A stretch of DNA of 35,387 bases from Acidobacteriota bacterium (GTDB lineage Bacteria; Acidobacteriota; UBA6911; JACQSX01): the NCBI GenBank assembly GCA_036507075.1, contig DASXQR010000177.1:1-35387 (forward strand), written 5' to 3'. The notes beneath the pieces are model-generated. The model saw only the letters and a list, made by a program, of their open reading frames with translations, did not search any database and was not told where the DNA came from. Positions 11,301 through 35,387 of the stretch are shown here, piece after piece. The translations under genes were made by a program, and so were the position numbers. Position 1 is the first letter of the stretch; each line of letters starts with the position of its first letter.

Positions 11301-11521
11301 GTTCGGGTTTTGCCGATCATGTGGCGGGCTTTGGAGATAGCAGCCGACTCCGCCTCTTCCCGACTGGGGGCCTCGGATCTGGCCAGATTAGCACCCGGGT
11401 CCACATTGTCGACCGTACAAATATAGTTCGGCCCCAATTTGTAGGATACGATTCGGATGCTCCACTCCCCTTCCTTTTCAATTCGGACCTGGCGATCTTC
11501 CGGCTTCAAAACTTCTGTCAT
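11291..11521 (-). CDS. Small hypothetical protein (76 aa) coupled to the sulfurtransferase
   Basis: ATGA overlap with the upstream stop; contains CTVDNVDPGA. Confidence 0.7.
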   Translation of the reverse strand: MTEVLKPEDRQVRIEKEGEWSIRIVSYKLGPNYICTVDNVDPGANLARSEAPSREEAESAAISKARHMIGKTRTSR

Positions 11522-12369
11522 GGCTGTTCCCCTTTGGCAATCGGCGCGTTGACCAGATTGCCCCACTCGGTCCAGGAGCCGTCATAATTGGTCACTTTGG
11601 GATATCCGAGCAGGTACTTGAGCACGAACCAGGAAAGGCTGGAGCGCTCTCCGATGCGGCAATAGGCGATTACCTCCTTGTCCGGAGTAACGCCCGCGCT
11701 TTCATACATTTTCTTCAAATCGTCGGCCGACTTGAACGTTCCATCCTCGTTGCAGTTCTTTCCCCAGGGAATACTTGCGGCCCCCGGTATATGCCCGCCG
11801 CGCTGGCACGTTTCCGGCAGTCCGGGGGGGCTGAGGATTTTACCGCTGTACTCGTCGGGCGAACGCACATCCACCAGCGCCGCTCTTTTCTTAGCTGAGG
11901 CTTCCATGGTCTGCTGCAAAAAAGCGCGAATGGAATTGTCCGGGCCGCTGGCTTTGTATGACTTTGCCGCGTATTCTGCCGGCCCTTTGGAAAGAGGACG
12001 CCCTTCCTCGATCCATTTTTTTCGCCCGCCGTTCATGATGCGCGCGTCCTTATGGCCGAAAATCTTCAGTTGCCACAGAGCCCAGCAGGCAAACCAATTG
12101 TTGTTGTCACCGTAGATGATAATGGTCGTATTGTTGTCTATTCCAGATTCCGAGAGCAGCTTTTCGAGTTGATCCCTAGGAATAACGTCGCGCCGCACGG
12201 TATCGCAAAGCTGGCTCTGCCAGTTCCATCCGATGGCCCCTTCAACATGGCCTTCATCGTAAGCTTTGGTATCAACATCGACTTCCACTACTCGAACATT
12301 TGGATCCTTCTTGTGCTGCTCTACCCACTCGGTCGAAACCAGAACCTCAGAATTGGCATAATTGGCCAT
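11518..12369 (-). CDS. Tandem-rhodanese thiosulfate sulfurtransferase (CysA/SseA type)
   Basis: LVSTEWV, GHVEGA, active site YCRIGERS, NYDGSWTEW; GGAGG RBS before ATG 12369. Confidence 0.92.
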   Translation of the reverse strand: MANYANSEVLVSTEWVEQHKKDPNVRVVEVDVDTKAYDEGHVEGAIGWNWQSQLCDTVRRDVIPRDQLEKLLSESGIDNNTTIIIYGDNNNWFACWALWQLKIFGHKDARIMNGGRKKWIEEGRPLSKGPAEYAAKSYKASGPDNSIRAFLQQTMEASAKKRAALVDVRSPDEYSGKILSPPGLPETCQRGGHIPGAASIPWGKNCNEDGTFKSADDLKKMYESAGVTPDKEVIAYCRIGERSSLSWFVLKYLLGYPKVTNYDGSWTEWGNLVNAPIAKGEQP

Positions 12370-12446
12370 ATTGCACCTCCGTTGGTCGTTGCTCAATTTC
12401 GAAAATCCACAATAGGAGGCCCTTATTATAGATAAGCTTAGCTCAG

Positions 12447-30123: not shown

Positions 30124-30215
30124 TTCACCGCAGAGACACCAAGATCGCTGAGTCTCGCAGAGTCTGCAATCCAGGCTCTGCGAAATCTCAGCGTGCTCTG
30201 CGCCTCGGCGGTGAA
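30124..30215. repeat. Palindromic element, ACCGCAGAG family
   Basis: TTCACCGCAGAG...CGCTGAG...TCGCAGAG paired with CTCTGCGA...CTCAGCG...CTCGGCGGTGAA. Confidence 0.75.
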
Positions 30216-30273
30216 TGCAACGCAGCCGGCTTCACGACCTAAATTCGGGGCAATAATGCTAGGATCAGAAAGG

Positions 30274-31410
30274 ATGAAAGGCCCTCGCGCAAAGAAAATG
30301 ACGCCAGCCAGAATCGAGAGCGGCGGTTTTCCCAGCCTTCCAATTCCCCTCCCCATCCCGTTTCCGCCCATGGAGGCAACGCGTGCCGGTCAACTGCCGC
30401 CGGGAGATGATTGGCAGTTTGAACCGAAGTGGGATGGATTTCGGGCCTTGGTCTTCCGGTCCGGAGAGCAGATCGTCCTGCAATCAAAATCAGGCCAGCC
30501 GCTGGCGCGTTACTTTCCCGAACTGATAAAGGAATTCGCCAAACTGAAACAAAAGTCGTTTGTCCTGGATGGCGAAATTGTTATTTCCGTTGACGGAAGG
30601 CTCTCGTTTGACGACTTGCTGATGCGGATACATCCAGCAGCTTCGCGCATCGCCAAACTTTCAGCCGAGACCCCGGCCATGTACTTTGCGTTCGATCTGC
30701 TCTACCAATCCACGGGAAAGAAGAAGCTTCTCGTGAAAACTCCGTTGTATGAACGCCGCCAATGCCTGGAGATTTTTTTTCGAAAGGCGGCAGCGAGTTC
30801 TTCAATCAAGCTCACACCGGCAACACGGGAACGCAAGACGGCAAGTCAGTGGTTCCGGAAGTGGGGCGCCATGGGTCTTGACGGCGTGATCGCCAAAAAG
30901 GTGAACGAGCCGTACCACTCCGGCGACAGGAAGGGGATGGTCAAAGTAAAAAACCTTAAGACCGCCGATTGCGTGGTTGGCGGCTTTCGTTACGCCACGG
31001 GTTCGCGAATGATCGGTTCGCTCCTGCTGGGCCTCTACGATTCCGAGGGTAAACTGAATCACGTCGGCTTCACCTCCTCGTTCACCCCTCAGGAGCGAAA
31101 ACAGCTAAAAAAGATCCTGGAACCGATGCGCGGCGGCAAGGGCTTCAGCGGCAGAGCTCCCGGGGGTCCAAGCCGCTGGTCCACGGAAAGAAGCGGGGAA
31201 TGGGAACCGGTCAACCCGTTTCTGGTTTGCGAGGTACGTTATGACTACTTCTCACAGCAGCGCTTCCGGCATGGAACGAAGTTCCTTCGATGGCGGCCGG
31301 ACAAGAAACCCAAAATGTGCACCCTGGATCAGGTAGCGACGACCGGTTTGTCCGTAGTCAGTGGTCCGTTGTCAGTCGCCAGTTTACTGCTTGGAACGTC
31401 GAAGGTCTGA
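30274..31410 (+). CDS. ATP-dependent DNA ligase, LigC type (start uncertain)
   Basis: EPKWDGFR, LDGEIV, AFDLL, DGVIAK, TADCVVGG and FRHGTKFLRWRPDK. Confidence 0.9.
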   Translation: MKGPRAKKMTPARIESGGFPSLPIPLPIPFPPMEATRAGQLPPGDDWQFEPKWDGFRALVFRSGEQIVLQSKSGQPLARYFPELIKEFAKLKQKSFVLDGEIVISVDGRLSFDDLLMRIHPAASRIAKLSAETPAMYFAFDLLYQSTGKKKLLVKTPLYERRQCLEIFFRKAAASSSIKLTPATRERKTASQWFRKWGAMGLDGVIAKKVNEPYHSGDRKGMVKVKNLKTADCVVGGFRYATGSRMIGSLLLGLYDSEGKLNHVGFTSSFTPQERKQLKKILEPMRGGKGFSGRAPGGPSRWSTERSGEWEPVNPFLVCEVRYDYFSQQRFRHGTKFLRWRPDKKPKMCTLDQVATTGLSVVSGPLSVASLLLGTSKV

Positions 31411-31412
31411 AA

Positions 31413-31910
31413 TCAATGAAGCGCGGCGGCTTGATTGATCGTGTCCTTGGCAATATCGCTCAGTTTTTCGTCCGCCTTCTTTTCCTCGTCGACGGTTTCC
31501 TTCAATAGATCCAGAGCATCATCATAATCGAGCAGCTTTGCCCAGGTGCAGATCGTTCCGTAGCTGGCAATTTCATAATGCTCGATCTTCTGAGCCACCG
31601 AGATCAATGCCGCATCTTTAACAGAAGGATCGGCTGTCGACTGCAGGATTTCAGTAGCTTCACGGATCAGACCCTGCACGCCAAGGCACGGCTCCGTTCC
31701 GGGATCGACGCCCAGCATCGCAAAGACCCGCTGCAGTCGTGTGAGTTGCTGTCGTGTTTCTTCATAATGATTCTGGAATGCGTTTTGAAGCTCCGCATAA
31801 GCCGCCGCCCGAATCATTTTGGGGAGGCTCTCCACCATTTGAACCTCCGCACTGTACAGATCCTGAAGCTCATGAAGAAACAGTGAATGAAATGATTGCA
31901 GTTTTTCCAT
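31413..31910 (-). CDS. DUF892 (YciE/YciF) ferritin-like protein
   Basis: ELQDLYSAE, AQKIEHYEIASYG and EEKKADEKL; GGAGG RBS. Confidence 0.9.
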   Translation of the reverse strand: MEKLQSFHSLFLHELQDLYSAEVQMVESLPKMIRAAAYAELQNAFQNHYEETRQQLTRLQRVFAMLGVDPGTEPCLGVQGLIREATEILQSTADPSVKDAALISVAQKIEHYEIASYGTICTWAKLLDYDDALDLLKETVDEEKKADEKLSDIAKDTINQAAALH

Positions 31911-32041
31911 ATGACCTCCTTTGGAATTAATAACCGCCACCTATCGAATTGAGGAAGCCGCCCTCACAAACTTCCCCCTTCCTTCCCCTTCATAACCCTC
32001 TTTTTTCATTGTAGTACTGATTCCGGGCACCGCAACCTGGA

Positions 32042-34069: not shown

Positions 34070-34076
34070 GCCTGAG

Positions 34077-34144
34077 AGTGGTCCGTGGTCAGTGGTCAGT
34101 CGGGACACGGACTACTGGCCACTGACCACGGACTACTGGCGACT
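34077..34144. repeat. Palindromic element with GTC(A/C)GTG heptamer arms
   Basis: 34077-34100 and 34114-34137 are inverted with 2 mismatches; solo arm of the same family at 31350-31383. Confidence 0.85.
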
Positions 34145-34474
34145 TTTGGCTTCGACCGGATACCCCGCTTTTATCCACCCGTTAAAACCGCCGTACAGCG
34201 GGTGAACATTATCGAAGCCTTTTTCCGCCAGGTTGTGCACCACACGGGTGCTTGCCTCGTCGTGCGGTCAGGCACAATAGGCAATGATGGGGCGATCACG
34301 CGGAAACTCCTCTAGATGTTCGCCCACTTCATCTGGTGGAATGCGCATAGCTCCCGGAAGCTGTGCGTCTGATTCTTCCCAGGCTTTGGGACTGCGAACG
34401 TCAAGAACAAGCAGCGGCTCTCGACGCTCCAGCCTTCCTTTCAGGTCATCGATAGTTACCTTCGTTAAAGGCAT
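34133..34474 (-). CDS. Single-domain rhodanese, probable selenoprotein (UGA at codon 69; 113 aa)
   Basis: After IIAYCA-TGA (34270-34268) the frame reads PHDEASTRVVHNLAEKGFDNVHPLYGGFNGWIKAGYPVEAKSRQ-TAG, the normal rhodanese C-terminal half. Confidence 0.8.
34225..34267 (-). promoter_or_regulatory. Candidate bacterial SECIS element
   Basis: CCGC-ACGACG-AGG-CAA-GCACC-[CGUGU]-GGUGC-ACAA-CCU-G-GCGG directly 3' of the UGA; folded by eye. Confidence 0.65.
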
Positions 34475-34486
34475 CTCATTATCTGC

Positions 34487-34981
34487 TTACTTGCGGGACT
34501 CTCGGGGAGCGGACACGTCCGGGACTTCTTCGCCCAGTGCCGTTGCAAGATCGATCTGATGCTCCTGTTCCTGGACCAGAATCTGGCGAATTTGCTCGGC
34601 GACGGCGAACTCACCCAACGCTTCACACTGCCTCACACGCTCGCGATAATTGCGCACCGTTTCATTCTCGTTGCTCAGATCAAACCTCAACATATCGACG
34701 GCATTCTCCGACAACTTTACGGGTTTTGGCGAAGCAGTGGGCATTCCGCCGAGATAATCGATGTTTTTGGCAATGGTGAGCGCGTGCTGGAGCTCCTGGG
34801 TTGCATGAACTTCCAGTTCCCCGGCTATGCTCATGTATTCAGGTCCCTTGAGCACCTGCGAATAAATAACGTAGGCGATGATCGCCTGGTACTCGCGGGC
34901 AAGATCTTCATTTAACAGATCGATCAGTTGCCCGCGAGTCACGGGAGTTACCTCGGGCGGAGTTTGTGTTTCAACCGGCAT
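34487..34981 (-). CDS. Ferritin-like protein (bacterioferritin-related)
   Basis: LNEDLAREYQAIIAY, ELQHA, IDYLGG and EQEH; AAGGAG RBS. Confidence 0.85.
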   Translation of the reverse strand: MPVETQTPPEVTPVTRGQLIDLLNEDLAREYQAIIAYVIYSQVLKGPEYMSIAGELEVHATQELQHALTIAKNIDYLGGMPTASPKPVKLSENAVDMLRFDLSNENETVRNYRERVRQCEALGEFAVAEQIRQILVQEQEHQIDLATALGEEVPDVSAPRESRK

Positions 34982-35139: not shown

Positions 35140-35246
35140 GGGATGGAGGGATCAAGGGATGGAGGGATGGAGGAGGGACGGAGGGATTGAGACATACGCT
35201 CTCCATCCCTCCATCCCTCCATCCCTCCGTCCTTCCATCCCTCCAT
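35140..35246. repeat. Palindromic element with GGATGGAG octamer arms
   Basis: (GGATGGAG)n at 35140-35190 and (CTCCATCC)n at 35201-35246. Confidence 0.85.
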
Positions 35247-35301
35247 ACTCTGTACTACTAACCATGAGAATTTTCGCGGCCTGCGCAAATTATTCGGGAG
35301 C

Positions 35302-35372
35302 GGAGAGACGGCCTGAGGGCCGTCTCAGCTTGGCAGGACACCGCAGAGAGACGGCCCTCAGGCCGTCTCTCC
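35302..35372. repeat. REP-like doublet, GAGACGGCC family
   Basis: 35302-35326 is the exact reverse complement of 35348-35372; each arm is itself a hairpin. Confidence 0.9.
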
Positions 35373-35387
35373 TTGACTTTTGGTTGC

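Follow-up and report, generated by a model that had tools for sequence, protein, structure and literature searches.

A minus-strand rhodanese gene of an Acidobacteriota genome with a probable selenocysteine codon in its active-site loop

A rhodanese reading frame near one end of contig DASXQR010000177.1 (assembly GCA_036507075.1, Acidobacteriota bacterium) is present in the public protein collection solely as a product of 68 amino acids, which raises the question of whether the TGA that closes it is a stop or a codon for selenocysteine (Sec). The window, as we call the whole stretch of DNA that was analysed, is 35,387 nucleotides long. It was originally predicted that a 68-residue frame stops at TGA right after IIAYCA, that the same frame continues for 44 codons encoding a rhodanese tail, and that standard gene callers would truncate such a gene. 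All three statements were borne out, the public call being the 68-residue protein, and we add that the gene lies on the minus strand, which had not been given. The frame runs from ATG at 34474 to TAG at 34133 and consists of 68 codons, the TGA at 34270-34268 and 44 further open codons. The features of the locus are as follows.

34133..34474, minus strand: CxU rhodanese gene, 113 aa, single rhodanese domain with one in-frame UGA (translation, PF00581, NF041203, AlphaFold2)
34268..34270, minus strand: putative Sec codon 69, the in-frame TGA of a C67-A68-U69 motif (TGA or Cys at the same column in homologs)
34274..34276, minus strand: codon of Cys67, the canonical rhodanese active-site Cys (aligns with the Cys of 3tp9 and of the ordinary paralog L029)
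34237..34251, minus strand: conserved upper stem-loop of the SECIS, 5 bp, loop CGUGU with G at loop position 2 (34245) (conservation in 19 genes; kept with TGA)
34230..34257, minus strand: outer tier of the hairpin, a 3-bp lower stem pairing 34257-34255 with 34232-34230 (predicted folds; absent from the family consensus structure)
34487..34981, minus strand: ferritin-like gene, ending 12 nt upstream of the rhodanese gene (Pfam PF00210, 78 bits)

Predicted product and its classification

Reading through the UGA raises the score against Pfam PF00581 (Rhodanese) from 29.2 to 50.1 bits (gathering score 22.2), with the domain at residues 8-102 of the read-through protein, and that against NF041203 from 47.6 to 102 bits (residues 5-110, Sec scored as Cys). 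An AlphaFold2 model of the 113-residue protein, built from a 66-sequence alignment with Cys in place of Sec, has a mean pLDDT of 94.3 and locates two helices and one strand C-terminal to the UGA; judged from this model, a 68-residue fragment without these last elements would likely be inactive. The complete protein is probably cytoplasmic, since no N-terminal extension stands ahead of its domain. From 4 candidates, a word-indexed search of proteins retrieved nothing beyond the 68-residue product of the window itself. The significance of the locus is mainly that of an annotation correction, and, as Sec forms make up 53 of the 80 metagenome loci sampled below, many such genes are probably truncated too.

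Rhodanese-type selenoproteins, to which the prediction had appealed, do exist, and the CxU kind is already catalogued and has been known since 2005; the gene described here is a further member. In its available parts, PMC13188914 lists it as rhodanese-like selenoprotein form 3 (CxU, NF041203; example TKB26178.1), credited to Zhang and Gladyshev 2005, and in the corresponding part of PMC9312934 the protein appears as COG0607 form 2 (CxU). Both elements of the form 3 definition, a PF00581 domain and CxU in the active-site loop, were found here. The protein shares with form 3 and with NF041203 (rhodanese_LYCAU) the single rhodanese domain, the CxU motif (here YCAU), the in-frame UGA and a SECIS in the coding region. 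NF041203 is its best NCBIfam match (102 bits, the next 42); however, with Sec scored as Cys, this score is below the equivalog cut-off of 115, and the match extends over positions 22-126 of 126, without the N-terminal part of the model. Because of the score we file the protein in the wider CxU form, outside the NF041203 equivalog. The four closest relatives score 100-110 on the same model, and judged by such scores this clade would lie just outside the curated equivalog.

With GlpE and PspE of E. coli (PDB 1gmx, 2jtq) the protein shares the rhodanese fold and the Cys that opens the active-site loop, but it differs in having Sec or Cys at +2, a conserved acidic residue at +5 and a loop two residues longer than that of the ordinary paralog L029; its score on the GlpE model is 37, against a cut-off of 102. 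The remaining rhodanese selenoproteins in the available text of PMC13188914, namely forms 1, 2 and 4 (UxxS/UxxG) and form 5 (TsoB, UxxxxU, NF045694), likewise have a rhodanese domain with Sec in the active-site loop, but their Sec motifs are different, and the TsoB model gives 17.8 for this protein against a cut-off of 805. PMC1976440, in its accessible part, describes a rhodanese-related family with a UxU variant, and this family is probably the CxU rhodanese family. The portion of PMC2593051 at hand covers single-domain rhodaneses, and those of PMC1794560 and PMC12013277 hold nothing on the CxU family; in the open-access literature we found no paper testing the activity of any CxU rhodanese.

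The best named relative belongs to a Terriglobales (Acidobacteriota) metagenome-assembled genome and is 41% identical, and the closest solved structure is distant (best E 4.7e-10). In a scan of genome contigs with a single protein, 4 loci came up, including one CxU relative. A search of plasmids yielded none but distant rhodaneses: the 30 listed of 265 reach 43% identity at most, and ArsR fusions are numerous among them.

Single-domain rhodaneses of another kind, CxxxxU, with TGA five residues after the catalytic Cys and a hairpin behind each, were seen at L070:398-733 (minus strand), L071:335-742 (minus strand), L073:3-242 (plus strand) and L075:274-672 (plus strand). They occur in genomes G001, G003 and G005, and one query found none in G000, the genome carrying the window. 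This motif is absent from the five rhodanese forms in the available text of PMC13188914, the closest being UxxxxU of TsoB, and BH2092 (PDB 3nhv) has CxxxxC.

Codon 69 and the hairpin behind it

The original prediction called for homologs with Cys or a conserved TGA at position 69, and both were found. TGA stands exactly at this column in 19 distinct genes of 10 genomes (L032 included), a count that is not a frequency, as the set was drawn from 40 related genomes and G000 and consists of returned loci together with 20 regions chosen for having TGA. Of the 150 full-length representatives listed, the 66 with the best BLAST scores were taken, and 56 of these were aligned, the 10 that are 202-323 aa long being set aside. 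Cys stands at position 67 in 50 of the 56 and at position 69 in 35, the other 21 having neither Cys nor Sec at 69; Glu or Asp occupies position 72 in 49, and Arg77 is present in 22. The D25-R27 and GG..W rhodanese motifs, together with the catalytic Cys, are nearly invariant. Sec forms are probably mostly missing from this full-length library, being truncated.

The prediction had also described a two-tier stem-loop directly after the UGA, with an apical loop CGUGU starting after 21 nt. Such a structure is present, its upper stem (GCACC/GGUGC) pairing 34251-34247 with 34241-34237 over codons S75-T76-R77-V78-V79, although only these 5 bp are conserved: RNAalifold run on the 19 genes yields the same five pairs and no others. 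We compared the hairpin with the bacterial SECIS consensus, which requires a loop of 3-9 nt, a stem of 4-16 bp, G in the first two loop positions, a spacing of 16-37 nt and a minimum free energy of at most -7.5 kcal/mol. Measured directly, the two tiers together lie within these bounds and agree with the Zhang and Gladyshev model, as given in the available part of PMC13188914, in the 5-nt loop, the 5-bp upper stem, G followed by U at loop positions 2-3, the 21-nt spacing and an energy of -9.0 kcal/mol; in contrast, the conserved 15-nt core taken by itself attains -6.1 kcal/mol, which does not reach the threshold; the lower tier is unconserved.

Folding of this single sequence gave no excess over shuffled controls (z from -0.04 to -1.01), and the hairpin was the minimum-energy fold in two of the five windows folded, a rival fold winning in the other three. 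We therefore rejected single-sequence folding as proof of a SECIS, and the significance of the hairpin comes only from the comparison of homologs. An extended stem of eight pairs was rejected as well, as it is 78.9% paired and its added pairs are often broken. Over the genome, a perfect stem at the same offsets with G at loop position 2 follows 521 of 194,699 TGA triplets (0.27%).

In the 19 TGA genes, 98.9% of the cells of the 5-bp stem are paired, with both-sided changes in three of the five pairs; 3 of 500 shuffles attained the real value, and slid controls reached at most 62%. The stem of the present gene itself contains a double change, G-C to A-U, which keeps the pairing while replacing Ala by Thr and Ala by Val. 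At this place L037, the closest ortholog, shows an A-C mismatch, the intermediate of this very change, and the same mismatch would result from one difference in an RNA contig of depth 2.1 described below, so that a perfect stem does not seem to be required.

The link between TGA and the stem was assessed in metagenomes with a DNA pattern in which codon 69 could be any TGN and which ended before the stem, so that it was blind to the hairpin. It gave 120 matches, and 80 loci were read, with TGA at codon 69 in 53, Cys in 27 and TGG in none; dropping three duplicate TGA contexts left 50 TGA and 27 Cys genes. Within this sample, whose loci are mutually related and which the pattern biases towards DedA fusions (57 of 77) and cannot extend to the window's own gene, the stem is perfect in 46 of 50 TGA genes versus 1 of 27 Cys genes, and has at least four pairs in 50 of 50 versus 3 of 27. 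G occupies loop position 2 in every TGA gene and in 10 of the 27 Cys genes, and Ser75 is coded by AGY in 45 of 50 and 5 of 27, respectively. Beyond the TGA the frame stays open for at least 38 codons in 48 of the 50 loci, the remaining two reaching the end of the locus. With the AGY-coded Ser75 and the stem-preserving double change, the CxU family offers a clear case of a coding-region SECIS constraining protein sequence.

The contrast was weaker among fully read loci from the phylum-wide search described below, where the stem was perfect in 15 of 22 TGA genes and had four of five pairs in the other 7, while the four Cys genes comprised one perfect stem, two with four pairs and one with three (L206, L207, L222 and L223, which are non-rhodanese, were left out, and L226 was too short to score). 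In a Cys-form rhodanese at L232:1368-1625 (minus strand, genome G056), no more than 35 upstream codons are open, in contrast to the closely related L230 and L231, and the gene is probably frameshifted.

Selenocysteine machinery, paralogs and independent sequence

G000 (6.1 Mb, 95.7% complete) was searched for selA, selB, selC and selD, as had been proposed, and carries all four above curated cut-offs: selA at 529 bits, selB at 380 bits, selD at 347 bits, with an in-frame TGA of its own, and selC as a tRNA-Sec with a UCA anticodon. The TGA of selD (L013, contig C59) lies in a CAGU motif, and a short strong stem starts directly at the codon. A second match above the tRNA-Sec gathering score (L017, G000:C43:8059-8148, 52.3 bits) is probably a long-arm tRNA of another kind; ARAGORN calls one SeC tRNA only.

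NF041203 has eight matches in G000, and four of them contain an in-frame TGA in the CxU motif. These four copies, the present gene included, appear to represent three architectures (two cytoplasmic, one exported, one DedA-fused). The paralogs discussed here are:

contig C69: stand-alone TGA paralog, 54% identical to this gene
L027:895-1839 (contig C187), plus strand: DedA/VTT-fused CxU TGA paralog (Pfam; stem present)
L028:1342-1833 (contig C191), plus strand: apparently exported CxU TGA paralog (signal peptide judged by eye; stem present)
L026:646-1170 (contig C104), minus strand: Cys-Asp-Gly paralog (GGA at the Sec codon; one stem pair broken)

The last of these nests in a tree among the cytoplasmic TGA genes, with modest support, and its Sec was probably lost through a single base change. 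The Gly of this paralog and the 21 representatives with neither Cys nor Sec indicate that residue 69 is dispensable in some relatives.

A similar pattern was found in 57 of 301 genomes of the phylum, G000 included. We searched selA and selB in 53 of the other 56, leaving out three whose only match was a non-rhodanese TGG; one more, G084, was later dropped as non-rhodanese. Thirty of the loci were read as protein and the remainder were classed by the matched motif. selA is present in every one of the 35 genomes that carry a TGA form, and selB in 33, the exceptions being an assembly in 470 contigs and one that is 84% complete. Of the 17 Cys-only genomes, six have both genes and 11 have neither, but these 11 are not independent, since all belong to one family, in which the three TGA genomes all have both selA and selB. 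In G072, selB is followed on its own strand, two genes downstream, by an exported CxC rhodanese (L236:3343-6678, minus strand), and G100, a genome of that genus, has a TGA motif match on contig C23 some 3 kb away from selB; such proximity was seen in one genus only.

The prediction had further asked for reads over the TGA. Run X2, a soil metagenome with a different study code, contains an 822-nt contig over 34077-34898 without a single difference across the gene and its TGA, which makes an assembly error unlikely. The RNA run X5 gave a 171-nt contig of depth 2.1 with three differences, ending 11 nt past the TGA without bridging it. No contig over the gene is listed for run X1, from which the assembly may derive, and run X3 has only parts outside the gene.

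On this evidence, codon 69 is in all probability decoded as Sec, to give a product of 113 rather than 68 residues. It could be argued that the TGA is a true stop, produced by nonsense mutation, assembly error or gene decay, and it is the case that the 68-residue form is the only product on public record and that the local hairpin is thermodynamically ordinary. Such an explanation is very improbable, though, given the TGA at the same codon in orthologs and paralogs, the downstream frames open for at least 38 codons in 48 of 50 TGA loci, the way in which TGA tracks with selA and selB, and the identity of the X2 contig. Still harder to credit, to the point of being almost negligible, is an alternative genetic code in which UGA stands for Trp or some other standard residue: it would be in line with the open frame beyond the UGA and with the paralog that has GGA (Gly) at this codon, but the tRNA-Sec is the only tRNA called with a UCA anticodon, the homologous loci have TGG in 0 of 80 and Cys in 27, and a neighbouring 532-aa ORF terminates at TGA.

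Possible function of the Cys-Ala-Sec loop and its context

The original proposal of a CxU active-site selenoprotein is supported by the TGA/Cys column, the sel genes and the hairpin, but it needs to be refined in one respect, as Sec69 is the second residue of the CxU pair and the canonical catalytic site is Cys67. From the position of Cys67 and the longer loop, Sec69 appears to be an extra residue at +2, the catalytic Cys not being replaced.

How might such a site work? Very probably, SelB with Sec-tRNA would bind the GCACC-CGUGU-GGUGC hairpin, 16-31 nt downstream, and UGA would be decoded as Sec. In bacteria, translation ends at UGA without selenium, and a lack of selenium would here leave the 68-residue fragment. 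For the chemistry, the reading that we favour by a modest degree is that of a 113-residue rhodanese selenoprotein in whose Cys67-Ala-Sec69 loop Cys67 carries sulfane sulfur or selenium and Sec69 releases it or passes it on. As in GlpE/PspE, a persulfide or perselenide would arise on Cys67; Sec69, in its loop longer by two residues, would attack this group to give a Cys-Sec selenenylsulfide, with sulfur or selenium being freed; and a cellular thiol or thioredoxin would re-reduce the Cys67-Sec69 pair. Sec is more nucleophilic than Cys. The stronger conservation of position 67 than of position 69 (50 versus 35 of 56), the two-residue insertion in the loop and the UxU variant in the accessible part of PMC1976440 lend support to such chemistry.

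A selenoprotein whose CxU pair serves instead as a redox or soft-metal(loid) binding or sensing site, the domain working by itself or as a regulatory tail of membrane proteins, is a possible though less probable alternative. It gains from the fusions of the CxU domain to DedA/VTT (in the metagenome loci, 34 of the 50 with Sec and 23 of the 27 with Cys) and to an Na+/H+ exchanger domain, from its occurrence after apparent signal peptides (judged by eye), and from the description of the rhodanese-DedA link as unclear in the available text of PMC10127716, which reports DedA-rhodanese fusions and where selenium comes up solely in the title of a reference. Against it, the rhodanese motifs D25-R27 and GG..W are nearly invariant, as is the canonical catalytic Cys, and no conserved metal-resistance context was noticed by eye around the closest orthologs. 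That the rhodanese fold here belongs to a phosphatase or arsenate reductase of the Cdc25/Acr2 type, whose loop motif is CX5R, seems improbable, as no such loop is present: the residue at +6 is Glu73 counted from Cys67 and Ser75 counted from Sec69, and Arg77 appears in just 22 of the 56 representatives, its conservation in Sec genes being explained by its codon, which forms the SECIS loop. What speaks for such an enzyme is the common fold superfamily, a weak profile match to the plant dual-specificity phosphatase 1t3k (E 1.8e-4), and the fusion of DedA proteins to PAP2 phosphatases as well, also from the available part of PMC10127716.

Going beyond the sulfur- or selenium-transfer reading, we offer as a speculation that the CxU rhodanese could be a modular redox switch based on selenium, of far greater breadth than its catalogue entry. 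It would use a Cys-X-Sec chemistry as yet uncharacterised in rhodanese-fold proteins to move sulfane sulfur or selenium between compartments or to gate transporters. If so, the stand-alone 113-residue copy would be its simplest version to assay; a small soluble CxU member is a convenient assay target in any case. In two genomes, G100 and G072, the CxU rhodanese is joined to the C-terminal end of an Na+/H+ exchanger domain (L217:1-1644, plus strand, PF00999 at 136 bits in L217; L218), with the SECIS stem conserved.

The ferritin-like gene is possibly co-transcribed with the rhodanese gene here; on the minus strand, no site resembling a promoter was called. Among 172 loci, many with short flanks, this neighbour was found only in two that copy the window, and the closest orthologs have other neighbours. 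A functional link between the two genes was considered and is unsupported, the pair not being conserved, and gene context of this kind gives no pathway. Near the ferritin-like gene are a DUF892 protein (31413-31940, minus strand) and an ATP-dependent DNA ligase (30193-31410, plus strand), and the region may resemble a loose general-stress neighbourhood. An ORF 22 kb away (11518-12396, minus strand) looks by eye like a tandem-domain sulfurtransferase. Short degenerate intergenic repeats occur at 34075-34135, 35150-35250 and 35300-35375, with an inverted repeat followed by a T tail at 35346-35371, and the repeat at 34085-34145 matches many unrelated soil contigs.
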